Below, one piece after another: positions 6,971-63,903 of a stretch of DNA of 64,000 bases; the stretch's first letter is position 1, and every line of letters starts with the position of its first letter. The stretch spans positions 25,640,912 to 25,704,911 of the forward strand of contig NC_092675.1 of the NCBI RefSeq assembly GCF_964355755.1, in the 5' to 3' direction. The position numbers and the translations under genes were made by a program. The DNA is from Antedon mediterranea. Lineage: Eukaryota > Animalia > Echinodermata. A model generated the notes under the pieces. That model searched no databases. It saw only the letters and a list, made by a program, of their open reading frames with translations, and was not told where the DNA came from.

Positions 6971-9900
6971 ATGTTTTCTCCAGTATACATCGTTGTCTGG
7001 TTCTCCATGGTACTTTTGCATATTACGAGATCTCAACAATGTTCAAGCTACGATTCGTTAGAATTAGGTAAGAAAAAAAACTTCGTTTTCAACTTTGTTT
7101 ATTGTTATTAATAGAGGAAAACAATTACATATAATTGACAAAAAAATAATATTAAAAAAATATAACAAAAATAGATATAGAAATGTTTTAAATCCAAAGG
7201 CAAATTACTGAAAAAATGACAATGCTGTGGGTATCAGTGGCTGGATCTCAATGGAGATACAAAAAAAAACCGAAAAGCTAAATCAAAACGATAAAGTAAA
7301 ACAGTCAGAAAAGTTAGTTCGGGCAACACTAGCCCTTCATCAGTGCAAGTGAAGGAAATGTTTTAAATATACATGTTAAATACTTCTACAACACTTTTTT
7401 TTAAATAACACATTTCTAACGGAAGGACTAAGATTAGTTGTACCAACACATGGAAGTATATATACCTGAATTAATACGAGGTATCTTTTAGGATTATGCC
7501 CTAAATTGAATGAGGTGTTCTGTCGCTATTAAGATCAGAAATAAAAAGAAGAACATAATGACTCCAAATGAGATTGTAACACAATTATAAATCTTAACAT
7601 TTTCAAAATTAAATTTTTATTTTGATAAGTGTCCGAGTTCAAAGAGGCAAGACAAAGTTCATTGTACCACGAGAATACCGTTGCAGGAACTGCTGTTGAC
7701 GGCTCAACTATTCGTCCATGTACTCACACTAGTAAGTAATTCTAAAACAATAACTAGTACAGTAGTATTGAAATTAATATGATAAAACATCAGTAATTGA
7801 ACATTTTATCTTTGTTAAGACGGTATATTTTTTGTTTATTCTAGTTTGTTTTATTGTAACTAATGTATCATTTCAAATAGAAAACGAACAGACGCCATGG
7901 TGGTACCTGGATCTCGGAACAGAAATAGTCATATCAAAGATTGTATTATTTAACAGAGTAGTTTGTTGTGGTAAGACGATCTAATAACAATTATTTTGAT
8001 TAAGATTTGACTTACAGCCAGCTAAAATACGGTTAGCCTATTAAGACAATGCGTTTTATTCAGAATGTTTTAACCACATTCATCAGACACATAATGCCAT
8101 AATGCTTTCGAAGTTAGATATCTCGTTTAAGATCGTTGGGGGTTTAGTTAATGTGACTGATTATCCAAAAACATTCCTAATTATCATAGTGGACAGGATT
8201 GTACTCCTTCCTACTGGTAAGCAATCCACCAACGTATACCAAGACAAAGCTGCGTAGAGGAATCATTACGATGACAATGTAATTTGCCCATATATGAATA
8301 TGATGATGCCATATCGCTACCATATTTGGGCATATCACTATCATTTTGTGCACATCACACTTTTTTGTCAAACTAGTTTGATATTGTAGACAGAGCTTTA
8401 ATGACAATGTTGTTCTTATTAGCGATTAGGTTACAAGGAGCAGATGTTCGTGTTGGAAACAGTAAGGATTTGCCATTTACAGAGAATACAAGATGTGGAA
8501 CAGTAGTTACACAAAATGAAGCAGAGAATATAAACCCGATACAACGTTACTGTAACCCACCTACTGGCATTGCCGGACGGTATGTCAGCATAACTAAACC
8601 TAGAGTTGTTGGAATTCTTTCCTTATGTGAAGTAAAGGTTTACAAAGGTACGTAAACGTTAATCATTTTTAACATCTTTTCAATTAATTAAATATGTTTT
8701 AAAATGAAAGCAATTTTAAATTATATTTTTTTATGACCAATATTATCAACATTCATAAAAGTTTTTTTTTTATTATGGCTCTACACCAACTGCAAACTAC
8801 TGTATCTAGCATTGTTTTTATGTTTCTAATGACGTTTAATAAACTGTGTCAATGAATGAGGATTATTAATAGTCTCAAACAGCTATTATGTCAACAGTCT
8901 AATTAAATAATTATGTCTATAGATAGTGGAAAACCTGTAGTTCTGTGTCCAGATGATATAGAAGTAAATGTTGAAAATAATCAAACTTTACATCCGGTTA
9001 CTTGGAATCTTCCTGAAGTTTATGATAATTTGCAAACAGACCTAATGGTGACCTGCTCTCCGTCATCAGGCTTCTTATTTCACATTGGATTCACCAAAGT
9101 TACTTGTTCAGCAACTGACGCAACTGGAAACGAAGGAAACTGTTCGTTTGTTGTAAATATTGCAGGTAAAAACAAGATAACAGTATGTTTTGACTATCAA
9201 TAGTACAACAACAATTAGCATTACTGTTCTTTTTTATCCTAATAATATCAAAAATAAAGTAAATTGCATACCACAAATAACGATTAATACATGACAAATA
9301 ATGTCCTTCTTATTTGCGTCCCATATTTTGAGTGTTTAAAAACTTTATTAGGATAGAACATGTTTAAACAACCTTTTTTCAAACATCCTGAATAAATGTT
9401 ACTACTGACAGTATTTTACTATAGCATTATTCATTCAATGTATTTTACATTTATAATAATGAAAGTGGATTTTATTTGTTTATTAGATAACAAGAAACCA
9501 GACCTCGTTTGCCCTACGCATATCACAGTAAAAAGCAACATTGACCAGTACGAAAATCCAGTTACCTGGAGTGACCCAACAGTGACGGACAATTTACATA
9601 AAGGTATATCAGCAACTTGTACACCTGCATCCGGATCCATCTTTGACGTTGGTTCAACTATTGTCACGTGTTCTGCAACAGATGGTACTGGAAATGTTGG
9701 AAGCTGTTCATTTGTTGTCCATGTCATAGGTCAGACGTTTAATAGTAAGGAGTACTTTTTATTTCATGTAGAGCTATATAATTATTTGTAAGCTTACAGG
9801 ATCGAAATAGTACCTTAAACACATTCTAAAATAATGTAGGAATATTAATATCAACACAATAAAGAAAATGTATACTCTGGCGTTTCGAAGTAGGCCTACA

Positions 9901-12900
9901 TAAGGTAGTTACCTATTTCAATAATAATTAACAATTATAGGCCTATTTGAGGGAAATTGTGAACTGCGATTACGTACTAAAATACTCTAAAAAAGGAGAA
10001 TTTTTCAATTATTTGTGTATGTTTCATTTTTTATTCAACATTTATTTAGTCATCAATTACAGTACATCATAATTACAGTACAACTGAAAACAGGGATCCT
10101 GCATAAAAAACTGTAGCTTCGTTTTTTTGTAGGACCCTTTTACATAAGAACAAGTATATAGAACTTAAATAAACAAAGGTGTTGTTAATCAGCATATAGT
10201 GATAAAAAGTATTTTTTGACCTGTTTTTTTATACATTTATTTTGTTTCTTTAAGATAACCGGTTTATTACCACCATTACAAGTGAATTCTTTCCACAATT
10301 TTGGTCCATATATGGGTATAAACTGTTGACTGCAAGTTAGTCTTGTGAAGGGAATTTCGAATTCAGTTTCTGTTCTGAGGTTATGAGTAGGCCTAATACT
10401 GTCACAGTAATTAAAAATATTTAAAATGTGATAATGTGGTAATTCATTGAATTTTACGTTTGCCATAAATCCTATGACGTTTACTTTGTAAATATCATAA
10501 ACGTTTAATATTTTTAGTTTCTTAAACAGTGGCTCTGAGGCTTGTCTGGATTTAGAGAAGGTAATGCATTTTACAGCTCTCTTTTGGAGTTTTAGTATTA
10601 CTTCTAACGTGCTCTTGTATGTATTTCCCCATATTAAGTTACCATACTGAAGATGAGGTAATACTAAGGTGTTATAAAGACTAATACGGACTTTATGAGG
10701 AAAGAATTCTCTTACTTTTAAAAGTATACCAATTGCCCTAGACATTTTTTTTCTAATAAGCTGTATGTGATGTTTCCAGTTAAGATTTTCGTTTAAAATT
10801 ACACCTAGAAATGTCACATTTTCTTTTCTATGTAATAACACATTATTCATTTTTATTTTAAACTGGTTTTTGTCAAAGTTCTTTTGGTTAGTTTTAAAAA
10901 CAACGTAATTAGTTTTGCTGACATTCAGTAACAGCTTATTTGCTTTAAGCCATACGTTTATTTTTTCTAGTTCAATATTCATAGTATGGTTTAACATTGT
11001 AGGATCTCCCCTTGTTATACAAGTTGTGTCGTCAGCAAAACTAATTATATCTATTTTACTACTTGCTCGACTTATATCATTGATGTAAATTAAAAACAAA
11101 AGTGGTCCTAAAACAGAACCCTGTGGCACCCCTATATTGGTGTCTTTTAAACATGATGATCTACCGTTGGCATAAACATATTGTTTGCGGCCACTTAAAT
11201 AGTTTCTAAACCACATTAAAACGATGCCTCTTATACCATAATGCGCCAATTTGCTCAACAGAATACTGTGATCGATAATGTCAAACGCTTTTGACATATC
11301 TATAAAGGTAGTAAGTGCATATTCCTTTTTTTCAAATGCATTTAATATTCTATGGACCAAGTCGATCATAGCATGAGAAGTTGAGTGTTTGTTTCTAAAT
11401 CCATATTGATTGTTGCTTAACACTTTACATTTTGTAAGATAATTGTATAATTGATTATGGATAATCTTTTCAAAAACTTTCGAAAAAATGGGCAACAGCG
11501 ATATGTGGTACAGTTAAGAAAATAAATATATAAACCAAATATCGTCATCTTAAACGCTGATCGTCATTAGACATTGCGCGTCTCACTTGTGTTCGCCACT
11601 CAGTACGTTTTTGAGCAAGCATGTGTATAGGTCTGCATGTGAAAAGTTCTCCTTTTTTATGTTTACCATCCATGTTGTTTTTGGTCTTCCTTTTGGTCTT
11701 TCTCTGAGCCTGAGATTAACAAAATAATAAACTGCAAAAAAAAAAAATCGTGAAAACAATACAGTACAAAGATTAGATTTGCAACGCCTCTCACAAAAGT
11801 AAAATTTAAACTGAACATTTGGGGCATTGTTTTTACCTATATCAGAGCTAGTTAGTGTACCGTAGTGGGTCATACGTATATAGTAAGTGTGGTATACGTT
11901 TTATAATATCTAACATCTTAATTTAAATTGTGTTTGAAATTATAAATACGCCAGAAATGATTAGCTTTACAACATACACATTCAGAACATTTTGTGTATA
12001 AAGGGAAACTAGCGCCCCCATATGGTTATTAAGATTCTATACCAAATACAAATTTAGGCGCCCGATCGCCATTTCCCTCTATTAAAACGTTTCAGTTGCG
12101 CTCTGTTGACTCTATATGAACATTACGTTATAGTTTATATATAAAGACAAATAAACGTAATGCTTTCAAGATTTTTTAATATCTAAAAAAATATTAATTA
12201 GGCGTACAGTATCATAAATCTAATAATATGTTTAGCTAAAGTTAGAATAATAATAATATAACATTATACATACTGATTCTGTTTGTTTTTTCTAGTTAAA
12301 AACAATTTTGTTGATAACAAATCTGTGTTTATTTGTCCTGAAAACGTTACTGTGAACAGCAATATTGACCAATCAAGGGCTTCAGTGATGTGGACTGGAA
12401 CAATGACCCCTAACAATGGGAATACAATAACGTGCATACCAGCATCGGGATCGGTCTTTGAAGTTGGTTCAACTATTGTCACTTGTTCTACTAGACATAA
12501 TGATGACGTAACAAGATGTCAGTTTGTTGTTCACGTGGAAAAATTTATTTCAGGTAAGAATACAATCTTCTAATTCATGTAGTGGCTTTTCTTTGTTAGG
12601 CCTGATTACAATTAGTATTTATTTTATAATGTGTACTTTTGACATTTTACATTATAAAGTTATTATTTCTTTTTTATATTCGTGGGCTTAGATTTATTCA
12701 AACTATAAAGAACTGTAGGATGTATTAATAATTATACTTCCAGCAATTGCCTACTTTCTTAATAAATACGCTTGTTCTCTGGTTCAACCAACGATCTAGT
12801 CTAGATAAGTAGCATGACATCCCAAACATTATATATTTATTTCGGTATACATAAACATACAAACAGCAGTAGCCTGGAAACGTTTATTAACAAATATATA

Positions 12901-14444
12901 AAAGATAAAGTATCAGTGGTTTCAATATAGAATTGTCAATAGAATTTTAACAACAAAAACCTTTCTAAAAAAAATTAAGATAAAGAATTGTGATCTTTGT
13001 ACTTTTTGTAAAATTAACACTGAAACAATTCAGCATATTTTTTTATGGTTGTATCCATGCAAATACTTTTTGGGTTTTTGTTTTTTCAACAAATTAAAAG
13101 CAAATGAATAGTTGGAATTATAATTTAAAGAAAACCCTTACCAGAGAATGCATTTTATTTGGTAATGCTTACAATGCTGTAAATAATCTTGTCATTTAGG
13201 TAAAATATTTTATTTACATATCTAGATGTTCTGATATTAAACCACCAAATTTAGGACTGGTTAATTTTTTAAGTCGAATTTTAAAAATAGAAGAGTACTT
13301 ACATTCGATAAACGACAAAATAGAGTTATTTAATGAGGACTGGAACGTTAAACTTTTGATTTTATAAGTAAATAAATAGGATATACCTTTTACATATTTT
13401 GTTTGCATTTTTGCTTTGGCCTTTTAATTATTTTAATTTAATTAAATTTCTGTTTTTAAGATTTGTTCTGCCTCATGTGTCACCGCTGTGTCGGTTTTTT
13501 TTTGCATATTTATTTTTCTCTTTTGTTGGGGCAACCCACTTTTATTGCAATGATAAACAATATGGTGAAGGTTACAGTATAATATATGTCTATCTATCTA
13601 TTTATCAATGAATATTTAAGTGATATTACACAGACAGAGGTTAAAAGATTATATAAAATATTTTGATATTGTGTTGAAATCTAGATAAAACAAACATGTA
13701 TACAGAGAAAATTTATATTACAGAGCTAAAACGATATAAAGATTGATATTCAGTATTAAAAAGAGATTCGATATAATATAAATATATATATGATAAAATG
13801 GTATATTGCATTATAAGATTATGTTTTGTTTGAATACTTTTATAAAATTGTATAGTTTTACATTTTGAACATAATATTTCTTTTATTATTTATATTATAA
13901 AATAACAAACTAATAAATATTGCAAAGCTAAACCCAAACCGAAGTATGGGGATACGCCCTCGTCGCTAGCCAGGTTTATTTTAATAGTTCTAGTTTAAAT
14001 CCTGGCTAGCACGTCTCCGTCATCCCGAATAAAAAAAAAAAAAAAAAAAAATAACATGTGGGTATTTCCAAATTTTTAGAAAATTCATATAGTGGACATG
14101 TATCTACCAGCGCAAGTGTTTATAAAGCAGTAATCGCAATGTTCTGTGTAATGGTTGTTATTATGGCATCTGCGTTATTTCTGGTTGTCAGGTACAGTAA
14201 CATGTCATTTATTCCATTACGATTTAAAATAAACCTAAATATATTTGAGGTAAATATAAGGTACTATTTAAAGAAACTTATTCTACATAATTATATCTTT
14301 AAAATATTAATAGGCATGAGCTTTGTGTTTATATTTTTATTTTCATTCGTGTTTTTTAGATACTATAAATCGAAGTTAAATCATCACACAATTGGAGTCA
14401 CCAAGTTAGAAGGTGATGCGATGAGCTGGAAGATTCTGGAATAA
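6971..14444 (+). CDS. Gene A: F-type lectin (FTP) - 3xHYR - TM receptor with tail lacking the distal tyrosine, about 484 aa
   Basis: Exons 6971-7067 (signal peptide MFSPVYIVVWFSMVLLHIT); 7630-7731, 7881-7970 and 8423-8647 (FTP: AVDG, CTHT, PWWYLDLG, NRVVCCAIRL, GRYV, LSLCEVKVY); 8923-9165, 9487-9729 and 12296-12553 (HYR); 14080-14191 (TM AVIAMFCVMVVIMASALFLVV); 14360-14444 (RYYKSKLNHHTIGVTKLEGDAMSWKILE*). All introns are GT-AG and the 1455 nt read in frame. Confidence 0.88.
10020..11505 (-). mobile_element. 5'-truncated CR1/L2-group (Crack-like) non-LTR retrotransposon in a gene A intron
   Basis: ORF 10185-11495 has RT motifs QYGFR, DMSKAFD, GVPQGSVLGPLLFLIYIND and FADDT, followed by the typical C-terminus and an AATAAA-containing 3' end. 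Confidence 0.9.
11530..11715 (-). mobile_element. Short 3' fragment of an RTE-type LINE
   Basis: Translates RERPKGRPKTTWM, matching the RxxGRPxxxW C-terminal motif also seen in the RTE element at 29760-29800. Confidence 0.45.
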
Positions 14445-16386
14445 TAATACGACGTACTTGTTGTCTAAGAATCATACTCTAATGCACTGTTAACAATATT
14501 AAAATAAAGACATTTAAACTATATAATGGATTGAAACAACATCTTAACATGAAAGCATGACGTCCATTTATATTTTCTTAGCTCTCTTATTAATCCTATT
14601 GAATAACTGAAACTATTGTTTTGAAGTTACAGCTTAGATTCAATTAATTGAAAGAAGAATATAGCTTCAACTTCGTTGAAGTTAGGTCGATAGTTATAGA
14701 TCTAAAGTTGCACTCCTAGTCAAATTATCATTCCATACAGGAGTTCTAGTAGCACCAATGGGCAAACGCTATAGAAAAAACCTCTGAAAAAAGTATTTGT
14801 AGGCCTTACTTAGGCATAACTGTTACTATCAAAATACGATGTATGTAAACGTCCTATTAAAATCGTTTTACAGGAAATTCTGAACAAAATGGGCCTAGAA
14901 GTGGTTCCTGGTGATAAAATCTAAAACCATAAAAGCTTGGCAATAAAGGGAATGAAACGGATGGTATAGAATGATAACAAGTTATTAAAGACTGAAAAGG
15001 AAATTTAAAAAAAATTACCACCTGAAAAATGTTTTTTTTTCTATAACTATAGCATAAACCGTAGTAGCATTGATAATGATATATAATAATTAATATTATT
15101 ATTTTAAGCATGATAACGTTTACATAACATATTGCCTAATTTTGAGTTTTTTATGTAACTCCATGTTTTATAGAAACATGTTTAGGCTATAAGAATGTAT
15201 CTTCCAAGAAACATAAGAAATATATTAGATAAGAACAATCTTTATTTTGATGACCACAAGGCGAATTTGTTTTCCTTGAAGCTTAATTACACACACTATA
15301 GACCTACAGTAATTAAAATTAATACAATATAATAATAAAGATTAAAATTAGAAAAAAAACATGATGGATAAAAAAACATTGAGTTGTTTTGAGTTGAGGA
15401 CAAATGAATTCCTACATCGAGTGCTTGCTATTAAGATTGTGTCAACCACATCCCGGTGAACAATCTATTTACCCGAGGAATCAAGAGATCACCAACAATC
15501 CCAATAAGTATTCTTAGAAAACAGATTTGCAGATGATTCGTTTTATTAATATGATATCTTTTACACATTGTGTAGAATGATATCATTGTTTTGGTAATAC
15601 ACTTTCTGTACCCACAGAAAAAAATTACACATATTGTAGTAATGAAAACGTAATCTGTATATAGGCTAGGCTACAAATTCCCATACTGTAGTTTTTCTAA
15701 ATGGTACTATAATTTGAAAACATTTCGGTAATTTTGTCATAAATACATTCATATCATTTCCGTCATAGAGATGATTGATTATGATAAAGATGGGAGGTAG
15801 CAGGGGCAGAAAAAATTGGGAATTATGGGCGGCAATAGTGGGTTCTACATTTTTGATACCACAAGTCTAGATACTAGTTTATTTTAATAATATATAACAT
15901 ATCGGACCGAACGTTAAATCAACAAAAATACAGTCGCGATATGAACGGAACGAAGTACAGGTATAGGCTACTAGAATTATACGCATGCGCAGATTAATAT
16001 TTTGTATAAATTACCGTTCCTTTACGTCTACCTTCCCCTTTCGTCTACTAACTATTGACTTTGACCAGCACGGTAACCACTGAGAATGCAGATGTGTACA
16101 ACGACGCGGCAAGAAGCTTGCAAAGGAAGACACCGATTTCAGTTTCTTTAAAATAATGATAGCATTATTTCTATTGAGATGAATTCGATGATCATAATGC
16201 AGCATGGGAATCTTGATAAATGTTTGGAATATAAATAACACTCAAATACTATACTATTTTTACAAAAATTATATTTACTGAATGTGTAACAAAATTGATC
16301 GTATTTGATACAACATTTCTTTAGAATTCCTTCTAATTTTCCATTTATAGATTGTTCCTAAATTTTACAATTCACCATTTCCTTAA

Positions 16387-19368
16387 AGGGGGTTTCCGGG
16401 TTTAAAATGAATAGTAAAAAATGTAAAATATATTTGTTTGTCTCTTGAACGGTAAAAGTTTCAATTTATATAAGCGCCCAGTGAAGCAGAACGAAGGCTG
16501 TGAAATCAGGCCAGATTACAAGTGCAGCTACGGCAAAATCACACTGTGGTTACAAAATAGGAAATTCGTGAAATGGTCCATCTTCCGACGACTCGTTATC
16601 AAAAACCATATCAATTACTTTTGTAAAATTATACTTATCTGATGTAATTTTAGTCGGTCTTCCCATTTATAAAGTCAATTTTTTATGAAAATTCATCAAA
16701 ACAGTGAAAAATTAGATATGTTTGCACTTTACGTTTGCCGATTTTCGCACCGACTTAGGGAAAAATCAAAATCAATGAAGCGTAACGTATACTGTACATT
16801 CCTGCTGAGGATCGAGCGAGACGAAAATACACGTGCTCTCTCTGCTGCCCATGCCTGGCATCGTCACGTGATAAGCAGATACAACAATACCAAACTGGTC
16901 GGGTCGAGTATACCCCGTCTATAATCACAACATGAACGATGTACAGTATTTGATTGAAGGTCGACTTGACCTACCGGATTGGTATAGATAATATAGCTCG
17001 AATGAGAGAGTTGGAATATTTGTGTAGTGCAGCCTATAGTAAAAGGCCTGGTAGTATCAATTCGCATAGGGTCTACTACACTAGCTAGCTCAATTTTTAA
17101 CTGGGCCGGATCGGCTAGGTCTCCTTCCTACTACCTGGTCTACTTGCTTGATGCATGAGTATCCGCTTTTTTGGAGAGTAAACTAAGCCTATTTTATTTT
17201 AGGCCTACTTAGACGATCGGGACACCATACGTGTGGACGGCGATCGGACCTTGTTTTGCTTCAATATTTACAGCCGATTTTGTAGAACGTTTTAGGTTTA
17301 GATTGTTTAGGAGTTTGGTTGATAGGATGGGTTTTGTTATTTATGGGCCAATCGTCTAGTAGTAGGCTAGCTAGGCCCATGGGCCCCATTGTTTTAACGT
17401 AGCCATCGTGGCATGGAATCCCTAGTCAGAATGGCTCTCGCCCATATTATTATTAGGCTAGGCCTAGAGTAGTATTGTACGTGAAGCCGATAATACGATC
17501 TGTACTATAGAGTATAAAAATAGTATAATTTATGACTCCGTATCTGTACTAAATTTTGTATTTCATTAAATGTCAAATAAATATATGCTACTACTGTTAT
17601 TATTACACTTTAGGCCTAGCTTAGAAAATCTACAAAAAATGTATTTCACAATGATCGGGTGGTCGTCGTTTGACAGGGGAGAGAGATGTAAATTAAGGCT
17701 GGTTTCCTGTCGACGTAAGAACATCACTTTTGTTGCGACTACGTCGATTGAAATGCGGATTTTACAGGAAACCGATTACGATCGAAAATTTATAAAATCG
17801 ACGTAACGTAAGAAAAATGGTAACGACAAACGATTTTACAGGAAACCGATGACCTAACAATTGTTGCGTTACGACGTTTTCTTCCGATTTTACAGGAAAC
17901 CGGGATTTTTTATCTTACGCTTGAATGAACGCCCTTGCGTCACGTTTCTTACGTCTCTTACGAAAGTTGACTTGAAGTCAACTTTCGCAAGAGACGTAAG
18001 CGCAATCGTAACAAGCAACCAATGAGCGACAAGAGTTATGACGTAATTTGTATGACCTTACAGTGAAATATAGCCGGACAATAACATTTGTATGTATTTA
18101 CCGTACTACTACAATTTTAGCCCACTTTACGATGTTGTACAATGTACATACTTTACAAATGCACAGTAGTTTCAATATAATATTGTTCTAATCAGGGAGT
18201 TTACAACTCACATCAAAATATAATACTCTTATTTATGGACGTGCAATAAACAATCCGCATTGAAACATTCGACATTTTTCTGTTCTATTTGTCGGTAGAA
18301 ACGTCGCGAAAATGAACATTTGCAACAAGATAAGATATAGAAAGCCCTTGTAAGCAATATAATATTATTATGTAACTTAAAAAAAAAATGTTTGCTTGAT
18401 TTTGTATAATTTATATTGTTTTGTCAATATAAATTATATTTTGGTATGCCTGGGCCCATAGGTAGGTCTAATAATAATAGGAATCCCGAAATGATTTGCC
18501 GTTTTTTAATTTTGAAAACTATTTAAGGCTAGGCCTACTAAGGCCAGAATAATTAATTCATATTTTGGTTCATACAATAGTGCATAGGCCTAGCCTATTA
18601 GCCTGGCTCCTAGGCTAGTTTGATTATATTTTGGTCAAATCCATTCCTATTAGTACAGTATTAATTAAGTATTATCACTAATACTAGGGCCTAGCATATC
18701 TACTAAAAATAATATGTTGGTGTGCTGCACTGACACTGAGTAGCTACAGGTACAATAACAACATTCAACATTTCGCGCGAAAAATGATAAAACCCGCTCT
18801 AAAAAGAAACACCAATCATAGATGTTGTTTCAAATACGTCATAAATCCGACCGACGTAAGAAAAAAATTTCAACTTTCGTAACAACACTAAAATCGACGT
18901 AAGCATACGACGTGTGTTTCACAGCCAAAATTTCAACTTTCGGGAGCAGCATAACTACAGATGTTTCTCTGTGGCCCGACACGATCTTGACTAACGTCAA
19001 CGACGTCAATTTTTTCTCAACTTTCGTAAGAGACGTAAGAAACGTATGAAACGCAAGAATCGTTGCAAAATTCAACTTCTTACGTCGATAGGAAACCAGC
19101 CTTTAGTTGACAAACACAACGTACATGACGTCGCGAGTTTGGAATCCACTGGTGACGTGATCTTGTGAATATCTCATGAATATTAATGAGCTTCCCTAAG
19201 CTGCTGAAAAACAGACTTTCCATGAATTTACCCTAAAATGTATATGAAATTTAATTTTTTTAATTTCTCGTTAATACTTCTTCATTCTGACATGTCTATA
19301 TTGTTATAATATTTTTTATTTAATAAATAAACGATATTTAAAACCAATTTTAAACCCAGAATCCCCCT
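16387..19368. mobile_element. Non-autonomous Kolobok-like DNA transposon (TTAA TSD, AG...CT termini) about 200 bp upstream of the gene B start codon
   Basis: TIR AGGGGGTTTCCGGGTTTAAAA / TTTTAAACCCAGAATCCCCCT with TTAA on both sides. The paralogous empty site CCATTTCCTTAAATATTTTAAC is at about 60071-60092. Confidence 0.85.
17696..19102. mobile_element. Non-autonomous PIF/Harbinger element nested in the Kolobok-like element
   Basis: TIR AGGCTGGTTTCCT(G/A)TCGACGTAAGAA with TTA TSD at 17693-17695 and 19103-19105. Subterminal ACGTAAGA and TTTACAGGAAACCG repeats. Confidence 0.85.
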
Positions 19369-20863
19369 TTAAATATTTTAACAAATGCTAAAAAAGTATA
19401 AAGAATGGTAGAGTGTTGTGATTGTGTGTAGTAGTAATACTGGGATACAGAAGATTTTGAACCAATAATAGGTAAGTCTTTTGGTTGCTTTGAATACGCG
19501 TTTCCTGGTGAACCTTATACACATTTCACATATTAAATAAATGATGTCACATCTGATGGCCCATTATTACACAATGTTTCCGTCAGTGTACAGCTTCGTC
19601 TGTTTTATGGCTTTTCTGCATATATCGACATCAAAAATCATTCAGTCATGCTACAATACGTTCGAATTAGGTAAGTCAAGTTTATTTTCATACATCTTTA
19701 AAATCTAATATATAGGCTACTAAGTAGGCCTATAAACAATTTAGTAAAATACTGAAATTGGAATTTTGAGAAAAACCGTAAGCTTTTTTTAAACGTATTG
19801 TATTTTATTTTATTGTAAGACTAGATGATTTATCAATTTACGATCATGGGAAAATGTAGAGATACCAAAGAGAAATGCACGGTTGTACATTACAATTCTC
19901 ATTTAGAAAAGGTATGACTTTCTAGTCAAAACAATATAATAATAATACGATTTACCTCTGCAGCAGACATTCCAATTTTTAGTATACATCCGAATAGGTC
20001 GACTACACCAAAAACTATAACTGTAATCTTAATCAAGACTAAAACAAATAAGGAATTTGGGCTAAAATTATGAACCGAATTCACTACACACCCAGCGTTG
20101 TTTCTAAATTTGATTGTAGTTATCTGCCAATTGAAATGACAGCATGTCTTTATAAGTATGACATTGTACTGTTGAAGAATAATTATAGCTTTTAAAATGT
20201 TTGTCAAAAATTGTCTAGTGTCAGAGTTCAAAACAACTAGACAAAGTACAACACATGGAAATGGTCCTGCTTCGTATGCTGTTGACGGTGGAATAAATGG
20301 ACAGTACAGCAAACGTACATGTACGCACACTAGTAAGTGATAATGCGTTTTAATTAATTATCTATTTCTAGGATTGATGCATATTCTATAACAATACTTG
20401 TTAACGTAGTTTTACTAGCATCAAAAACATAAAACATTTCCAAATAGTTTTCTTATTCAAACGTTAAATAATTTAGTAGTTGTATTTGTTTTATAATGTA
20501 AACCTTGGCTAAATACTGTAAACATGACTGACATCCTATATATCCTATTCCGCCTGCATTATTGTTTTCCAATCCTTCTTAAGCAGAGATTATTTATGGT
20601 ATACAGTTGGAAATTATAGGGGCGATATATAAGCATGAACTTCGATCAAATATTCCATAATAAATCTCATGAATTACTTATGTTTCTGCCTTAACCTGAT
20701 AGGAGAAAAACATGACACTAACGGCCTCACCTGCAATAACATGTATTCAATGGGTTTAGCGTATGTTACAAACGATGAATTGGGTTTCCTATCCGAAACA
20801 TAGTTCAATCGAACGTTTAATGATCAATGAAAAATGATAACCGAAAGTGAAACATTAAGAACA

Positions 20864-25630: not shown

Positions 25631-25667
25631 AAAATATGCACCTATAGAAGTTTTTAACCACATAGCA

Positions 25668-27706: not shown

Positions 27707-27856
27707 TAGCAAAAATATATACCAAACAGCTAAAACAGGAAACATACCTAAAGAAATCAACGAAGGCATATTGCATCCAATACCGAAACCAGGCAAGATA
27801 AAAGGTCCACCAAAAAACATCCGACCCATCATCCTACTGTCGGTTCTTAGGAAAAT

Positions 27857-28264: not shown

Positions 28265-28361
28265 GGAAAATGCTAGCAATATGCTTACTAAATAGGATAA
28301 ACGACAGATTAGATGAACATGTCCCTGTAACACAGGCCGCGTATCGCAGAGGACAATGCAC

Positions 28362-38537: not shown

Positions 38538-38574
<37 letters not shown>

Positions 38575-50600: not shown

Positions 50601-50909
50601 GATATACGTACGCCCTCTATAGCTTCTGCCTTAACCTAATAGGAAAACAATAATGCCACCGGGATACATCTTTGATGTTGGTTCAACTATTGTCACGTGT
50701 TCTGCAACCGCTGGAAATGTAGGAAGTTGTTCGTTTGTTGTCCATGTCATAGGTCAGAGAATTGATCCAGGAAGATTTTGTTAACAGATGTAAACGTTGT
50801 GTTATGTATAAACACGAGTTTACTGAATAATCCTATACATACCTGTACATACTTCGTAGGGCCAACATTAAATGAAAGTCACACTTTTCCAGTCGAACAT
50901 TCTTACAAA

Positions 50910-53900: not shown

Positions 53901-56900
53901 GTAGTTGTACTAAGATGACATCCGGTATGAAGCGTCTCACATACACACAGAGCCAAAATTGCATCTTGGACTTGCACAGTGTATGGACTCTCCCCTTACG
54001 GTTTCCATTAAATATACCATTTCATGCTATCATTCTAAATAACTAACTTTCAACCTATTGCATTCATCTTTTTTTCATTCCATCCATCTTATCTTGGTGA
54101 AAAGGAAGGATACTACATTTTCCTCCCCTGAGTTTATAGCCTCTCTACTCGAACACAAATAAGAACACAAATAAGATAGTTTAACAAGAAAATTTTAATC
54201 ATGTATTTTACCGCAATTTTCATTTCTACATTTTAATTAACATCGTATCTAAAATTTTAAATGAGAAAATGTATTGTTAATACAGAATTCTGGCATCTTA
54301 TTATGTAAATATACCGGTATTTTAACTACTCTAAACACTTACTTTTAATTGTCACAAATGTACTTATATGTATATAATATATTCATCAATGAGAATTTAA
54401 ATAAACGTGAGAAGAACTCACACAAGACAAAAAAAAAATTATGTATTGCGGAATTACAGAGGCCAACTAGCTAGGCATCCATATGACGTTCGTTCTTATC
54501 GTGGTTTCTTTCAACATTTTCAATTCATTGAATACGCAATGTCATAAATCAAAACTAATTGATAGGCCTAATTTTTATGTGTGCTAAGACTTTCAGGAAT
54601 AAGAACAGATAGTCTTTAAACAGAAACTATTACATTTTAAATAGACACTATCCAGAAATTAAAAAAATATCGGACAACTTCCTTCTGAACAATATCCAGA
54701 CACCTAACGCCTATTAAAATAACCACCTAGCCTAAATTAAGCATTGAGCCAAGCTGTTTTTGTGGAAAGAGCAGCTAAGTTACTCAGTACGCCGGGGATC
54801 AATTTATTAATTATAAGTCTTATTTGCACATCGTAATAATATATTATTATTGTATATTAGATAATAAACAACCAGACTTAATCTGTTCCAAAAATAATAG
54901 TAAAAAAACTCATTGAAGAATAATAATGAAGAAAGAACTATGATCCAAACTGTAGTTGGGCATAAAGGTACAAGTTGTTTGTTTTTTCAGATGATAGAGA
55001 ACCTGACCTCGTTTGTCCTGAGCATATCACGGTGGGCAACAATACTGACCAGTACGAAGATCCAGTAACCTGGAGTGACCCGACAGTGACTGACAATTTG
55101 CATAAAGACATATCAGCAACTTGTACACCTGAATTGGGATCAATCTTTGACGTTGGGTCAACTATTGTCACGTGTTCTGCAACAGATGATACTGGAAATG
55201 TTGGAAGTTGTTCATTCGTTGTCCATGTCATAGGTCAAACATTTATTTCTTGTAAGCATAATATTTATCAATACTTTAAAGAGCTTAATTTTTAAAATTA
55301 ATACTGTTATATCTCTTTTCGCTATTCACCGTGTCCGATAACGGGCTTAGGATCAAAATACGTATTATATGTGTATTTGTATGTTCTTCAGATAATAAGG
55401 AACCAGATCTAGTGTGTCCTGAACCTATCATAGTTAACAACAGCACCGACCAGTACGAAGATCCAGTCACCTGGAAGAACCCCATAGTAACAGACAATTT
55501 GCTTAACGATATATCAGCAACTTGCACACCTGCATCGGGATCCATCTTTGACGTTGGTTCAACTATTGTCACGTGTTCGGCAACCGATTATATTGGAAAT
55601 CTAGGAAGTTGTTCGTTTGTTGTCCATGTCATAGGTCAGACCTTCAATGGTAAGGAGTACTTTTATTTATATAGAGCTATGATATTATTTACAAACTTAC
55701 AGAATTGACCAGTATGACAAACAATATTTTAAATTTTTTTTAATCTACTACAATATTTTAATAAATTAAGCAGCCGAGGCTACCTGGGGTTAAGGAGTAA
55801 ATAATAATTATACAATTAGTATAAAAGTAAAGTAGTAAAAAAACTAAGGAAAATGGTGAATGAAAATTGAATAAATGAAAAAAAGAATCGCCATTTTGCT
55901 TTTCGTTATATCAAAATAGTTTACTAAAATCGTCTATATGAACATTTACTTTCAAGTAGGACTAGTTAGGCCAACAAAAATAAAATACGTAGTATTATAA
56001 TGCTTTAATTATTTTATCTGGATATTTAATAATTGAGATATAGTTATTGTCCAAAAAAGACGAACAATGCCACAAATAGCCAGAAGGCTGAAACTGTGAC
56101 ATTTTACAATACAAAAGTTAAAATCCGTTTAAATATTGTAATTATTATACTTTTATTATCATTTTTTTCTTTTTTTTATAGTTAAAAACAATGTACTTGA
56201 TAAACAGCCCGTGCTTATTTGTCCTGAAAACATTATTGTTAACAACAGTGGCATTGATTTAATGAGGACACCAGTAACTTGGACTAACCCGACAATGAGC
56301 TCTGATAATATTTTACCAACAATCTGTGCTCCGGCATCGGGATCGGGGTTTGACGTTGGTTTCACTACTGTTACATGCTCTGCTGTTACTGATGACGTAA
56401 TACGATGTCAGTTTGTTGTTTACGTTGAACAATATATTTCAGGTAAGACAATACATGTTCGACGTTCTGTTTTTTTTAACATGATGTACACTATAAGTGT
56501 ACACAGTCAAGCGGATCAGAAGGGTAATATATCCCGTATTACCTGTTTGATGTTTCTACGCGCGCGTTGTTTATGTAGTGCATTGTATTTTTATCGTTGA
56601 GCGCATGCGTAGTTGTAATTTCAAACCCGTATTCGACGGTTAAAAAAGCTAATCGTAATCGTCGAAAGCTCCCTATTGTTGTTGTGATAGCTAGAGCTCA
56701 AAATGGATGAAAATAAAGGTCGTCGATTTCAATGTGTACACTAAGAGATAAAATCGTTGCACCCTGCTTGTTCTTACAAAATACGGGAAATATCTAGCCT
56801 ACGTTCTGGTTCCATGGAATTTTCTTATATTTTGTTATACACTTGACAGGATCATCATTATCATCTATCTCGTTTTAAAATAGTTCACACACTTTCATTT

Positions 56901-58137
56901 GTTTGTTTTCATTTTACAACCCGGATTATACAATATATTTATATACATGATAAAAAAATAAAAAAAACAATAATAGCTCAGTACCACCAGTAACCCGTAT
57001 CACTGTAATTCCTTTTCGGTTAATCGTATCAAATTAGAATTTATATTATCATAATCTTATTTCTTAAAGCTACCCATTTTTCTATACTTGTTTCTTTATT
57101 GTTATATGTTTCACATTCAATGTTATATAACATATTGCTTTTAAATGAATTCCATAAAGATTTACCCACTGGCTTATTTAGTGCAGATAACATTTTTATT
57201 CTATAAATAGTAAATGCTGCAAAAGTGTAAATATAATCTATTAGCTTATCTCCCGTTCCTAGTATTAATTGTTTAAATGATATATTATTGTGATTTAAAC
57301 TTACAAAGATACTAAGCATTTTCCTCCAATATTTCTGAATAAATCTACAACTAAAAAACAAATGATTTTCATTTTCAATTTCCGTAATATCTGAAGATCT
57401 GAAGTGATAGTTTAAATTTGGCGCCAAGAATGTACAGAAAGTAATTTGTGGGTACTTTAAAATTATAGTTATTATTATTAGGTTATTCGTATGATGAACA
57501 TGTCTATACGACAAGTTTGAACAAAGCAGTGATCGTAACACTTTGTGTAATGGTTGTTATTATGGCATCTGCGTTGTTTTTGGTTGTAAGGTACTGTACC
57601 ATGTCATTTTTGGAAATTCCGATTTTCAATAAACCAGTAAATATAAGGTGTCTTATTTAAATTAACTTCAACATACATACTACCGCTTACCACTATTTAT
57701 GAACCACCGTGATTCTAAACCTATTTAATTTAACTTTCGCCGATGAGCTATGCTCGACGCGATTATGGGATCATGTTCCAAATATGAGCACTGTTTCAAT
57801 AACTTGACAGTATGATTTATATATAATTTACTCAGTGCTACGCAACACAATCCAAATATATACAAGTTTGTATTGGGATTGTTTTTTGTTACGGGTAACT
57901 CACTATGTAATGAAATTAGCGGACATACGGAAACCCTAATATAAAATTGATGAAAAGAAACAGGTGGTTCGAAAATGAGGTTGCAAATTAATATAATGTA
58001 CAGCAATAGAACGCTTTGTGTTTATATTTTTATTTTCATTTGTGCTTTTTAGATACTATAAATCGAAGTTGAATCATCACACAATTGGAGTCACCAAGTT
58101 AGAAGGTGATGCGATGAGCTGGAAGATTCTGGAATAA
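50910..58137 (+). CDS. Gene D: FTP - 4xHYR - TM receptor with C-type ectodomain and A-type tail, about 567 aa
   Basis: Exons 50910-51006, 51623-51739, 52046-52135, 52573-52788, 53442-53684, 54991-55233, 55392-55634, 56182-56442, 57482-57590 and 58053-58137. The 1704 nt are in frame, all introns are GT-AG, and the motif NRDDCCADR is intact. Confidence 0.88.
56940..57435 (-). mobile_element. Decayed 3' fragment of an L1/Tx1-type LINE
   Basis: ORF 57041-57541 includes ENENHLFFSCRFIQKYW, resembling the zf-RVT C-terminus of Tx1/L1 ORF2. Confidence 0.55.
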
Positions 58138-61100
58138 TAATACGACGTACTTGTTGTCTAAAAATCATACTTTAATGCACTGTTAACAATATTAAAATAG
58201 AGACATTTAAACTATATAATGGATTGAAACAACATCTTAACATGAAAGCATGAAGCCCATTTATATTTCCTTAGCTCTCTTATTAACCTATTGAATAACT
58301 GAAACTATTGTATTGAAGTTACAGCTTAGATTCAATTAATTGAAAGAAGAATATAGCTTCAACTTCGTTGAAGTTAGCTCGATAGTTATAGATCTAAAGA
58401 TGCACTCCTAGTCAAATTACCATTCCATACAGGAGTTCTAGTAGCACCAATGGGCAAACGCTATAGAAAGAACCTCTGAAAAAAAGTATTTGTAGGCCTT
58501 ACTTAGGCATAACTGTTACTATCAAAATACGATGTATGTAAACGTCCTAATAAAATCGTTTTACAGGAAATTCTGAACAAAATGGGCCTAGAAGTGGTTC
58601 CTGGTGATAAAATCTAAAACCATAAAAGCTTGGCAATAAAGGGAATGAAACGGATGGTATAGAATGATAACAAGTTATTAAAGACTGAAAAGGAAATTTA
58701 AAAAAAATTACCACCTGAAAAATGTTTTTTTTCTATAACTATAGCATAAACCGTAGTAGCATTGATAATGATATATAATAATTAATATTATTATTTTAAG
58801 CATGATAACGTTTACATAACATATTGCCTAATTTTGAGTTTTTTATGTAACTCCATGTTTTATAGAAACATGTTTAGGCTATAAGAATGTATCTTTCGAG
58901 AAACATAAGAAATATATTAGATAAGAACAATCTTTATTTTGATGACCACAAGGCGAATTTGTTTTCCTTGAAGCTTAATTACACACACTATAGACCTACA
59001 GTAATTAAAATTAATACAATATAATAATAAAGATTAAAATTAGAAAAAAAAACATGATGGAAAAAAAAACATTGAGTTGTATTGAGTTGAGGACAAATGA
59101 ATTCCTACATCGAGTGCTTGCTATTAAGATTGTGTCAACCACATCCCGGTGAACAATCTATTTACCCGAAGAATCAAGAGATCACCAACAATCCCAATAA
59201 GTATTCTTAGAAAACAGATTTGCAGATGATTCGTTTTATTAATATGATATCTTTTACACATTGTGTAGAATGATACATATACTGTTTAACCTCGTTATCA
59301 TTGTTTTGGTAATACACTTTCTGTACCCACAGAAAAAAATTACACATATTGTAGTAATGAAAACGTAATCTGTATATAGGCTAGGGTACAAATTCCCATA
59401 CTGTAGTTTTTCTAAATGGTACTATAATTTGAAAACATTTCGGTAATTTTGTCATAAATACATTCATATCATTTCCGTCATAGAGATGATTGATTATGAT
59501 AAAGATGGGAGGTAGCAGGGGCAGAAAAAATTGGGAATTATGGGCGGCAATAGTGGGTTCTACATTTTTGATACCACAAGTCTAGATACTAGTTTATTTT
59601 AATAATATATAACATATCGGACCGAACGTTAAATCAACAAAAATACAGTCGCGATATGAACGGAACGAAGTACAGGTATAGGCTACTAGAATTATACGCA
59701 TGCGCAGATTAATATTTTGTATAAATTACCGTTTCCTCGTTTCCTTTACGTCTACCTTCCCCTTTCGTCTACTAACTGAGAATGCAGATGTGTACAACGA
59801 CGCGGCAAGAAGCTTGCAAAGGAAGACACCGATTTCAGTTTCTTTAAAATAATGATAGTATTATTTCTATTGAGATGAATTCGATGATCATAATGCAGCA
59901 TGGGAATTTTGATAAATGTTTGGAATATAAATAACACTTAAATACTATACTATTTTTACAAAAATTATATTTACTGAATGTGTAACAAAATTGATCGTAT
60001 TTGATACAACATTTCTTTAGAATTCCTTCTAATTTTCCATTTATAGATTGTTCCTAAATTTTACAATTCTCCATTTCCTTAAATATTTTAACAAATGCAA
60101 AAAAAGTATAAAGAATGGTAGAGTGTTGTGATTGTGTGTAGTAGTAATACTGGGATACAGAAGATTTTGAACCAATTATAGGTAAGTCTTTTGGTTGCTT
60201 TGAATACGCGTTTCCTGGTGAACCTTATACACATTTCACATATTAAATAAATGATGTCACATCTGATGGCCCATTATTACACAATGTTTCCGTCAGTGTA
60301 CAGCTTCGTCTGTTTTATGGCTTTTCTGCATATATCGACATCAAAAATCATTCAGTCATGCTACAATACGTTCGAATTAGGTAAGTCAAGTTTATTTTCA
60401 TACATCTTTAAAATCTAATATATAGGCTACTAAGTAGGCCTATAAACAATTTAGTAAAATACTGAAATTGGAATTTTGAGAAAAACCGTAAGTTTTTTTT
60501 AAACTGTATTGTATTTTATTTTATTGTAAGACTAGATGATTTATCAATTTACGATCATGGGAAAATGTAGAGATACCAAAGAGAAATGCATGGTTGTACA
60601 TTACAATTCTCATTTAGAAAAGGTATGACTTTCTAGTCAAAACAATATAATAATAATAATACGATTTACCTCTGCAGCAGACATTCCAATTTTTAGTATA
60701 CATCCGAATAGGTCGACTACCCCAAAAACTATAACTGTAATCTTAATCAAGACTAAAACAAATAAGGAATTTGGGCTAAAATTATGAACCGAATTCACTA
60801 CACACCCAGCGTTGTTTCTAAATTTGATTGTAGTTATCTGCCAATTGAAATGACAGCATGTCTTTATAAGTATGACATTGTACTGTTGAAGAATAATTAT
60901 AGCTTTTAAAATGTTTGTCAAAATTGTCTAGTGTCAGAGTTCAAAACAACTAGACAAAGTACAACACATGGAAATGCTCCTGCTTCGTATGCTGTTGACG
61001 GTGGAATAAATGGACAGTACAGCAAACGTACATGTACGCACACTAGTAAGTGATAATGCGTTTTAATTAATTATCTATTTCTAGGATTGTATGCATATTC

Positions 61101-63055
61101 TATAACAATACTTGTTAACGTAGTTTTACTAGCATCAAAAACATAAAACATTTCCAAATAGTTTTCTTATTCAAACGTTAAATAATTTAGTAGTTGTATT
61201 TGTTTTATAATGTAAACCTTGGCTAAATACTATAAACATGACTGACATCCTATATATCCTATTCCGCCTGCATTATTGTTTTCCAATCCTTCTTAAGCAG
61301 AGATTATTTATGGTATACAGTTGGAAATTATAGGGGCGATATATAAGCATGAACTTCGATCAAATATTCCATAATCAATCTCATGAATTACTTATGTTTC
61401 TGCCTTAACCTGATAGGAGAAAAACATGACACTAACGGCCTCACCTGCAATAACATGTATTCAATGGGCTTAGCGTATGTTACAAACGATGAATTGGGTT
61501 TCCTATCCGAAACATAGTTCAATCGAATGATCAATGAAAAATGATAACCGAAAGTGAAACATTAAGAACAAGCAAGGGTTACAATATTTTCCAATATTGA
61601 ACAATACTTCATGTTATCATTCTATGGCAAGGTGAACGTTTCTGTATATTTTTTGTTATGAATAGACAATTGATAGATTCTTAAACAGTATTTTTATTTT
61701 TTTTCTAATTGAAAGCTCTCATGAATAATCCATGGTGGTATGTTGATCTCGGAACGGAAAAAGTAATTTCAAAGATTGTTATATTTAACAGAGAAGATTG
61801 TTGTGGTAAGTAAGAACAATATATTAAACTCATTATCTATTTGCATGTACATTTAATTCTAGTCGTGACCGCGGTCGAAGGTGTTAAAGAGTCGCTATTT
61901 ATCTCCATAGACTTACCATTAAAGTACAGTAGTCTAATTTAGGATGTATATTAAGCAGAATACGACATTAAGTCTCCTTTTAATGTATATGAATTGTTTA
62001 ACCATAGTCTAATCAACCTATATTATCGATGGGCAGTTAGTTATTATACTTTTAAACTATTTTCGACTATGCTGACTCAGCCTGGTATTTTGGTATAAGT
62101 TCATTTCTCAAAAAATAAACTCCAGGTAACCTAAAATAAAAGTGTACGGTTTATTCTCGACATCGCCTCGATAGAAACAATTAAACGCGCGCAGTTGGTT
62201 ATCTGAACATAAGTTAACTTGTTCAAGCCTTAAATTATACCTTAATGTTGATACCTCTCTAGCAAATAATTTTACAAAGATTTTCAAAGGAAATCAAACG
62301 AACATTTTGTAATTCCTAATATCAAAGGGATAGCTTCGAAAACATTTTATTTATGAATAATCTTCCTTCAGATATTAAATAAGCATAAACGTGCTAATAA
62401 AGATTCATCTTGGTAATGTTCATGACTACACTGAAAGTAATGAAAACTGTTAAATAATGCTGTAAATTGTTAATGTTATTGTAACTGTTAATTGTTAGTA
62501 CAAACACCATTGGAAATAAGCTGTGTCAGCTTTATGGATGTTGTTTAGAGTACCGAAACAAACAAACTGAGTATATCATGTATTTGCATTTTGTGTTTTT
62601 TTTTGCCTAACGCATGTTAATGTTACTGGTTATTAACCGTGTGTTGTTTGTTTTAAGCTGAGAGGTTAGCAGGAACAGAGGTTCGTGTTGGAAATAACAA
62701 GGCTCCACCGTTTTCGGATAATGCACAATGTGCATTGACTATATCACGAATGGATGCAATCGCAATAAACCCTATAGAGATGTCATGCAACCCACCTATT
62801 TCTGGGCGGTATGTCACTGTATATAAACAGATTAGAGGATATCTTACCTTATGTGAAGTAAAGGTTTACACAGGTGAGTACATATTAAATTTGGTAATAA
62901 AGCCTTTACAGTTATTGTTCACCATCTATGGAATTTCGACATTGAATTCGTCTAAAAAATCATTAAAAACACATCTTTGTGCCAATTGTAGACCTATGCG
63001 TACAAAACACACCTTTAGAGCCATATGTGGAGGAAAAAAACTAAAATAATACCTA
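58013..63055 (+). repeat. Dispersed segmental duplicate of 14320-30475 lacking the TE insertions
   Basis: Near-identical tail exon, 3' UTR, intergenic region and exons 1-4 (D to E versus A to B). Confidence 0.92.
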
Positions 63056-63903
63056 CAATTAATTATCTATAGGCCTAATGTATGCTATTTTATTACATTT
63101 TATTACAAAAAAACAACCCGAAAATGTTGGAAAGAAGGAATCCTGCCATCAAACAGCTTTATTTACTAACTGTTAATAATATAACAAACTATAAGAACTA
63201 ACATTGGTTTTGTAGATATTGAAAAACCTGAAGTTGTGTGTCCAGATGATATAGAATTACATGTTGGGAATAATCATCGTTTACATCAAGTTGATTGGAA
63301 TCCTCCTGCAGTTTCTGATAATTTTCATACGGATCTTTCGGCAACCTGTTCTCCATCATCAGATTCTTTATTTCCAGTTGAATTCACCAAAGTTACTTGC
63401 TCAGCAACTGATGCAACTGGAAACAAAGGAAACTGTTCGTTTGTTGTAAATATTGCAGGTCAGGAAACTATTGCTAAAGCTTGGTTCCCACTAGGACGCA
63501 ACACAAGAACGCTTGTGATTGGTCAATTTGCTTACGTTGCGGTAATTACGTCATTGCGTTGCGTCCTAATGGGAACCAAGCTTAATAATGAAGAAAGAAC
63601 TATGATCGAATCTGTAGTTGGGCATAAAGGTACATCTATACAAGTTGTTTGTTTTTTCAGATGATAGGAAACCTGACCTCGTTTGTCCTGAGCATATCAC
63701 GGTGGGAAACAATACTGACCAGTACGAAGATCCAGTAACCTGGAGTGACCCAGCAGTGACCGACAATTTGCATACAAATATATCAGCAACGTGTACACAT
63801 GCATCGGGATCAATATTTGATGTTGGTTCAACTATTGTCACGTGTTCGGCAACAGACGGTACTGGAAATGTGGGAAGTTGTTCATTTGTTGTCCATGTCA
63901 TAG
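60284..63903 (+). CDS. Gene E: FTP-HYR receptor, 5' part (continues beyond the window); intact counterpart of gene B
   Basis: Exons 60284-60380, 60932-61045, 61716-61805, 62658-62873, 63216-63458 and 63661-63903 are in frame, with motif NREDCCAER. Confidence 0.87.
63478..63582. mobile_element. 105-bp Harbinger/Tourist-like MITE in a gene E intron
   Basis: TIR AGCTTGGTTCCCA(C/T)TAGGACGCAAC(A/G)CAA with TAA TSD on both sides. Confidence 0.85.

Follow-up and report, generated by a model that had tools for sequence, protein, structure and literature searches.

F-type lectins are known mostly as soluble proteins, and their membrane forms are represented by furrowed of Drosophila. Siglecs combine a lectin head with a variable number of Ig-like domains and a transmembrane (TM) segment, and their clustered genes are rapidly gained and lost. 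In a window of 64,000 nucleotides (the whole stretch of DNA that was analysed) from the crinoid Antedon mediterranea we find five collinear paralogues on the plus strand (genes A to E, positions 6971-63921) that share one gene plan: a signal exon, an F-type lectin domain (FTLD) spread over three exons (FTP exons 1 to 3), HYR domains of one exon each, and then one exon for the TM segment and one for the tail. We consider it probable that these are tandem genes for type I membrane F-type lectins, predicted to bind fucose-type glycans and likely to serve as cell-surface recognition or adhesion receptors with a layout like that of selectins and furrowed. The original prediction made from this DNA had described F-type lectins as mostly soluble, a statement that needs the qualification that a membrane-anchored F-lectin is itself already known, namely Drosophila furrowed/CG9095 (PMC5712786). 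Furrowed has a role in adhesion, and CG9095 deviates at two residues of the fucose motif (PMC5712786).

The published work on the eel agglutinin (AAA) supplies the features against which a new FTLD can be compared. Three basic residues of AAA bind the 4-OH of fucose and the Cys82-Cys83 pair contacts the ring, and the extended site is shaped by the complementarity-determining regions CDR1 (Glu26/His27) and CDR2 (Phe45/Tyr46). The fucose motif consists of a His followed by Arg-x-Asp-x4-Arg/Lys, and the cation motif has the form h-h-D-G-x, where x is N, D or S (PMC5712786). The domains and segments given as partners of the FTLD in F-lectin reviews are the C-type lectin domain (CTLD), pentraxin, the complement control protein domain (CCP), TM and FA58C (PMC5712786; PMC12221842); the terms "HYR" and "hyalin" do not occur in the available portions of these two reviews.

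To define the coding exons, 69 open reading frames (ORFs) around candidate exons were submitted to Pfam, out of 203 plus-strand stop-to-stop ORFs of at least 45 aa. HYR (PF02494) was matched above the gathering score in 13 of them (E 1.3e-17 to 1.3e-4), and the F-lectin-type family PF22633 was matched by one of the 69, just below its cut-off. Searches with the exon peptides of gene A (tblastn) showed that the signal, FTP1, FTP2, FTP3 and TM exons recur in the same order in the four other copies. With splice sites set by copy-to-copy comparison, the five models comprise 41 exons, and the introns have GT..AG ends in 36 of 36 cases. Exon 1 ends in phase 1 and the TM exon in phase 2, the last exon encodes a tail of 28-33 residues, and the FTLD and HYR exons are all phase 1-1 and multiples of three in length, with the exception of FTP exon 3 of gene B (217 nt). 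Within the window the HYR exons number three in A, one in B, three in C, four in D and two in E, and the reading frames of A, C and D are intact over 489, 497 and 578 aa; the window is AT-rich (GC about 0.26-0.40). Hydropathy profiles display an N-terminal hydrophobic core (2.05-2.77 over 10 aa) and a single TM segment (2.95-3.37 over 19 aa) followed by Arg/Lys. The spliced models and domain matches support the proposal that putative type I membrane F-type lectin-HYR proteins are encoded here. The five-paralogue plan that had been described, with signal, FTLD, HYR, TM and a tail of about 30 aa, is sustained by Pfam, tblastn and the spliced models, with the corrections that B is broken and that E is cut by the end of the window.

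Two of these models coincide with proteins annotated at NCBI. The gene D model is identical to the NCBI "uncharacterized protein" P0001 (XP_071954522.1) over 578/578 residues (reached through FTP exon 3 of D, 100% identity), and residues 12-340 of gene E are identical to residues 1-329 of P0164 ("hyalin-like", 557 aa; 329/329), from which the complete gene E is seen to encode four HYR domains, the TM segment and the tail. Further, in run X1, a putative RNA run from another study than the DNA runs, a 1422-nt contig joins 55649|56182, 56442|57482 and 57590|58053 with GT..AG ends; these joints coincide exactly with the modelled gene D introns between HYR3, HYR4, TM and tail, and the same three joints are absent from the DNA run X2. 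The 3' part of gene D in X1 shows one difference in 519 nt. The expected splicing of FTP, HYR and TM exons into one transcript is hence confirmed in part: the X1 contig covers HYR3-HYR4-TM-tail of gene D, and for the FTLD-to-HYR joint of this gene the backing comes from the NCBI model only. For gene D, X1 yielded no contig across the junction between FTP exon 3 and HYR1 or across those among the FTP exons, its 5' contig (50900-51037) extends beyond the modelled exon 1 donor, and neither result was used; variants in FTP exon 3 agree with B at three of five places and with no copy in the window at the other two, a pattern that is not interpretable. Among the predicted NCBI isoforms, P0011 (compared with P0166) skips the second and third FTLD exons, and P0165 (compared with P0002) runs from FTP exon 2 into other sequence; exon skipping preserves the reading frame because all these exons are phase 1-1.

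In P0001, Pfam recognizes PF22633 (E 5.4e-18, 65.8 bits against a cut-off of 27.8) as well as PF00754, and phmmer searches of the PDB sequences with P0001 returned FBP32 of striped bass (3CQO, 8.5e-39) and AAA (1K12, 1.3e-21). The AlphaFold2 model of P0001 (mean predicted local distance difference test score 71.2; FTLD blocks mostly 76-92, with one falling to 60-66) folds into a beta-rich head, four beta domains and one helix (residues 526-559), and its best solved match in Foldseek is again 1K12 (TM-score 0.79, root-mean-square deviation 2.8, 152 columns), with streptococcal FTLDs next. Comparison with the characterized lectins showed that: 1) the alignment of P0001 and AAA is gap-free between AAA positions 26 and 86, and His52, Arg79, Asp81 and Arg86 of AAA therefore correspond to His70, Arg97, Asp99 and Arg104 of P0001. 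2) The conserved cysteines of P0001 align with those of the fish lectins, and the vicinal pair equivalent to Cys82-Cys83 is present in all of A to E. 3) B, C, D and E keep the fucose motif, with the His/Arg/Arg triad present and the His-to-Arg spacing of AAA; His, Arg, Asp and Arg are likewise retained in C, D, E and the related proteins P0009, P0166, P0022, P0018 and P0019, and P0015 has the His and both Arg with Asn for Asp. 4) At the equivalent of Ser49 there is Ser in C and D, Thr in B and E and Pro in A. 5) The cation motif of gene A reads AVDGS and fits the published form. Judged by these residues, the heads of B to E are predicted to be binders of fucose-type glycans.

Behind the head, P0001 contains four HYR domains (Pfam, E 2.4e-43, above cut-off), and Foldseek matches its modelled stalk, loosely only, to strings of Ig-like or cadherin domains. 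The tail follows a pattern of R-(Y/H)-(Y/R)-K, a short basic stretch, G-x-x-M-K-x-E-(D/E) and (S/T)-W, which is common to A, D, E, six other Antedon paralogues and P0018 of Anneissia; the tail of gene C aligns to this pattern but has diverged. In the tails examined (A, C, D, E, the six other Antedon paralogues and P0018) there is no canonical immunoreceptor tyrosine-based inhibitory, switch or activation motif (ITIM, ITSM, ITAM), and no charged residue was seen in the TM segments of the tested paralogues. The parallel with Siglecs that had been drawn for this family consequently extends to the layout and not to these signalling features; as the tails are without ITIM or ITAM, the layout is closer to that of selectins and furrowed than to that of Siglecs. 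In P0019 of Anneissia japonica about 50 aa after the TM segment (residues about 470-527) are unlike the family tail, possibly because an exon was wrongly joined in the automatic annotation.

The array (Table 1) has grown through recent segmental duplications and through unequal crossing-over between HYR exons. Self-comparison by blastn resolves two long duplication units, and a further segment, which starts at the tail exon of A and reaches FTP exon 3 of B, has a second copy spanning the tail of D through FTP exon 3 of E. Only the A-B copy of that segment is interrupted by transposon insertions, among them an RVT_1 ORF. The duplication breakpoints sit in HYR exons, which accounts for the different HYR numbers and for the chimeric gene C, whose 5' part is D-like and whose last HYR, TM and tail are B-like. 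Gene B is a decaying copy, because FTP exon 3 carries an extra base leading to the TGA at 30301 and the tail exon has a TAG at 32103; P0002 ("fucolectin-5-like isoform X1", 155 aa) equals residues 12-166 of gene B (155/155) and stops at the frameshift stop. An 8.3-kb intron filled with transposons separates FTP exons 2 and 3 of this gene and holds an RVT_1 reverse-transcriptase ORF at 28797-29921 on the plus strand (Pfam). A lost copy has left HYR pieces in the spacers in front of the start codons of C and D. Taken together, the broken copy, relic exons and chimeric copies bear out the proposal of a tandem family with variable stalk length evolving by birth and death. Outside the window, the 31.7-Mb contig that contains it carries further paralogues of this architecture (P0008, P0009, P0166, P0015, P0168 and P0022), several with near-consecutive accessions, which hints that the cluster extends beyond the window, its limits and copy number being drawn from protein matches only. 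We also observed weaker HYR relics at 34294-34365 and 49725-49868; a 417-aa transposon ORF at 37339-38592 on the minus strand in an intron of gene C, with no Pfam match; a 42-nt minisatellite (15.7 copies, 93% matches) at 46093-46755 in the spacer between C and D; and, upstream of the cluster, a 180-nt unit repeated three times (99% matches) at 3994-4536 and an open stretch of 333 codons at 1693-2691 (+), rich in Gln, Thr, Pro and Val and with no Pfam match, which is probably an exon of an unrelated neighbour.

Table 1. Features of the F-type lectin-HYR array, in positions of the window
Feature	Position	Strand	Basis or remark
Gene A	6971..14444	+	489-aa open model
Gene A exons	6971-7067 signal; 7630-7731, 7881-7970, 8423-8647 FTLD; 8923-9165, 9487-9744, 12296-12553 HYR; 14080-14191 TM; 14360-14444 tail and stop	+	spliced model
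Retroelement reverse-transcriptase ORF, intron between HYR2 and HYR3 of gene A	10185..11513	-	Pfam RVT_1, E 1.3e-32
Gene B, broken copy	19574..32171	+	spliced model
Gene B exons	19574-19670 signal; 20219-20332, 21657-21746, 30104-30320 FTLD; 30616-30876 HYR; 31162-31273 TM; 32075-32171 tail	+	spliced model
Gene B lesion 1: 1-nt insertion (about 30294) relative to C, D, E in FTP exon 3, giving in-frame TGA 30301-30303	30289..30303	+	copy comparison
Gene B lesion 2: TAG in tail exon, CAG in gene C	32103..32105	+	copy comparison
Gene C	35479..43475	+	497-aa open model
Gene C exons	35479-35575 signal; 36187-36303, 36610-36699, 38856-39071 FTLD; 39716-39958, 41281-41541, 41682-41942 HYR; 42461-42572 TM; 43379-43475 divergent tail	+	spliced model
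Partial second FTP exon 3 in intron 3 of gene C; acceptor intact, internal TAA, possible donor at 38815	38679..38781	+	tblastn, copy comparison
Gene D	50910..58137	+	578-aa model
Gene D exons	50910-51006 signal; 51623-51739, 52046-52135, 52573-52788 FTLD; 53442-53684, 54991-55251, 55392-55649, 56182-56442 HYR; 57482-57590 TM; 58053-58137 tail	+	spliced model
Gene E, 5' part	60284..63921	+	continues past window end after second HYR exon
Gene E exons	60284-60380 signal; 60932-61045, 61716-61805, 62658-62873 FTLD; 63216-63458, 63661-63921 HYR	+	spliced model
Segment spanning A tail exon through B FTP exon 3	14320..30475		self-blastn; second copy at 58013-63055 (D tail through E FTP exon 3), 91-98.5% identity
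Duplication unit 1, B HYR exon through C second HYR exon	30481..41544		self-blastn
Duplication unit 2	41545-55254		self-blastn; 95-98.5% identical to unit 1 apart from insertions
Relic HYR exon piece, about 150 bp upstream of gene C start codon	35231..35326	+	tblastn, 88% identity over 34 aa, E about 3e-13
Relic HYR exon piece upstream of gene D start codon, twin of that of gene C	50662..50757	+	tblastn

Divergence is unevenly spread over copies and domains. Gene A is about 60% identical to the other copies, and synonymous divergence is about 0.03-0.09 within the pairs B/E and C/D and 0.6-1.2 between A and the others. The ratio of nonsynonymous to synonymous substitution rates (dN/dS) is 0.16-0.31 for most pairs of HYRb exons, 0.42-0.60 for HYRa exons, and 0.73-0.81 for FTLD exons 1 and 2 when the C/D lineage is compared with the B/E lineage. 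Between D and E, 20 of the 33 FTLD differences fall within AAA positions 20-58, on the CDR1/CDR2 side, and FTLD exons 1 and 2 have nonsynonymous to synonymous counts of 30:10, compared with 8:13 for HYR exon D2/E2 (Fisher p = 0.006 in a comparison chosen post hoc). Because of this clustering and these counts, the lectin loops evolve faster than the stalk, with no demonstrated positive selection. A maximum-likelihood tree built from 13 proteins separates the eight Antedon members from the two of Anneissia (support 94/93), which fits lineage-specific expansion or homogenisation.

With regard to the wider distribution of the architecture, local profiles detected FTLD and HYR together in 18 of 314 fetched proteins, and all of these are crinoid (14 from Antedon, four from Anneissia); P0018 and P0019 of Anneissia japonica share the architecture of the array. 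The 314 proteins include the best 150 of 27,898 HMMER matches at E up to 0.001, which are dominated by giant HYR proteins and among which any short FTLD-HYR protein of another phylum with a score under about 438 bits would not appear; since such listings favour long HYR proteins, absence outside crinoids is not proven. Other layouts occur among the 18, for example TSP1-FTLD-HYRx9-CTLDx14 in P0242. The larger Antedon proteins P0028 and P0013, encoded outside the window, have an EGF/CUB-FTLD-HYR(6-8)-TM layout with an FTLD that is without the fucose triad, and their long tails end in the ITSM-like T-x-Y-E-V-I. In the ESM Atlas the nearest large clusters have HYR only or FTLD only and never both, which is no measure of novelty or absence. 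Literature searches on crinoid lectins, on HYR with lectin and on the HYR domain with fucolectin returned nothing on an FTLD-HYR family, and a 2015 survey of architectures (Bishnoi et al.) may list FTLD with HYR. The original prediction knew of no characterised receptor family of this architecture, and this agrees with the literature searched. FTLD-HYR-TM is a variant architecture within the known, highly mosaic F-lectin family.

If these proteins are indeed membrane F-type lectins, a rigid stalk of beta sandwiches would carry the head at its end, the ligands of the head would be terminal fucosylated glycans of other cells, the matrix or microbes, and the paralogues might differ in fine specificity via CDR1/CDR2. 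The short conserved tail would then serve sorting or cytoskeletal anchoring rather than ITIM/ITAM signalling. Immune, tissue-adhesion and gamete settings would all be compatible with such a putative role. A more far-reaching version of this reading can be put forward tentatively: crinoids may have their own fast-duplicating membrane fucose receptors, an independent origin of the lectin on an Ig-like stalk, which might read different glycans through CDR1/CDR2 in non-self or gamete discrimination and have their stalk length tuned by HYR crossing-over. Several observations weigh against fucose-binding membrane receptors as the general description of the array. As to the heads, in gene A the motif reads Arg-Val-Val, with Val in place of Asp81, and there is also the Pro for Ser49 and a deletion of five residues at the CDR2 segment (AAA Phe45/Tyr46); outside the window P0008 has lost the His and the second Arg of the triad and P0168 the His. 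As A, P0008 and P0168 have lost motif residues, not all members of the family can be fucose binders. The cation motif of B to E, A(V/A)DGG, has Gly at x, outside the published N, D or S. As to the gene models, A and C have no counterpart among the database proteins returned and rest on the present models; the splicing of gene C may be spoiled if its partial second FTP exon 3 serves as a decoy, and this could be why gene C is missing from those proteins. The NCBI models of B and E begin at the second Met, without a good signal peptide, signal peptides and TM segments were called by hydropathy only, and X1 is RNA by guess only. As to selection, no dN/dS value is significantly above 1, all being below 1 wherever more than a handful of sites is available, and for the whole FTLD against HYRa and HYRb together p = 0.08.

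These points gain meaning when set beside what other explanations would predict. The layout of a lectin head, variable Ig-like stalk and TM segment in a clustered family with fast turnover is also that of Siglec-like immunoregulatory receptors, in which the head would sense self or microbial glycans and the tail would signal by tyrosine motifs or a partner chain, and the tail of gene C, A-I-Y-C-S-V, contains a YxxV motif, and the larger crinoid FTLD-HYR proteins outside the window end in T-x-Y-E-V-I. Such a function is doubtful, since the only Y-based motif in the tail common to A, D, E and six other paralogues is a juxtamembrane YY, the motif of gene C has Ala at -2, which is non-canonical for an ITIM or ITSM, in a model and tail exon without outside support, and the TM segments offer no charged residue for pairing with an adaptor. 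A role in gamete recognition, with the FTLD as in oyster sperm bindin and HYR as in the candidate egg receptor of sea urchins, would suit the rapid duplication and loss, the species-specific clades and the faster lectin loops. Oyster bindins are FTLD repeats (PMC5712786), sea urchin EBR1_5 combines a TM segment with SEA and seven HYR domains, and its HYR domains are under positive selection (PMC5521101), and Anneissia P0025 has seven HYR domains and SEA. In the crinoid family, however, it is the HYR exons that are conserved (dN/dS 0.16-0.3), the reverse of EBR1_5, and dN/dS never exceeds 1, so that we regard this as an unlikely account of the array.

The losses of motif residues in A, P0008 and P0168 and of the triad in the larger EGF/CUB-FTLD-HYR proteins, together with the NCBI label "hyalin-like" on several members, could alternatively point to hyalin-like matrix or adhesion proteins whose FTLD is structural and has lost sugar binding. 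The retention of the full motif in C, D, E, P0009, P0166, P0022, P0018 and P0019, and of the His and both Arg in P0015, the vicinal Cys pair kept throughout and an FTLD that is under constraint, as its dN/dS below 1 indicates, all make this improbable. A different doubt concerns the reality of the copies, which might be haplotypes assembled in tandem or mostly dead genes: the pairs B/E and C/D reach 95-98.5% identity over stretches of kilobases, a degree of divergence also seen between alleles of marine invertebrates, B is broken, and A and C are without outside annotation. The copies nevertheless differ in structure as well as in sequence: their HYR exons number one, three or four, their TM/tail cassettes are of two types and their transposon insertions vary. 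The identity of A to the other copies is about 60%, the 3' part of D recurs in a run from another study with the single difference given above, and three ORFs of 489-578 aa remain open, all of which renders an assembly artefact or a set of mostly dead genes very improbable indeed. The best-supported reading of the array is that of probable membrane F-type lectins for recognition or adhesion.

At least 11 crinoid loci combine a head of the canonical fucose-binding type (predicted) with an HYR stalk and a membrane anchor, and their natural variants in loops, stalk length and tail offer a tractable set for studying the evolution of F-lectin specificity and presentation. They add a candidate receptor family to crinoid immunity or reproduction, a little-known field, and the cluster is a clear case of phase 1-1 domain-exon shuffling and unequal crossing-over generating receptor diversity. 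Among described systems, furrowed/CG9095 of Drosophila, a type I membrane protein, carries its FTLD close to the N-terminus and has a stalk of small repeated modules, one TM segment and a short tail (PMC5712786), a topology that the crinoid proteins are predicted to share; it differs in a stalk of CCP (sushi) instead of HYR domains, an extra C-type lectin domain and a single-copy rather than tandem gene. Neither C-type lectin nor CCP domains were found in P0001 by Pfam, and the resemblance to selectins and furrowed is one of layout only. Siglecs differ in having a V-set Ig head that binds sialic acid, whereas the crinoid head is an F-type jelly roll with a predicted fucose-type ligand, and the crinoid proteins are without canonical ITIM/ITSM and without a charged TM residue. 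Sea urchin hyalin and EBR1_5 are, like the crinoid proteins, extracellular HYR-repeat proteins of echinoderms, EBR1_5 also having a TM segment (PMC5521101); neither is described with an FTLD, and the HYR domains of EBR1_5 evolve fast whereas those of the crinoid proteins are conserved. The head itself belongs to the same domain family as eel AAA (1K12) and MsaFBP32 (3CQO), with motif and cysteines aligning without gaps, and the eel isoforms vary in CDR1/CDR2 (PMC5712786) as do the crinoid paralogues. The fish fucolectins are secreted, with one or two FTLDs and without stalk or TM segment, whereas the crinoid proteins carry one FTLD on one to four HYR domains with a membrane anchor.

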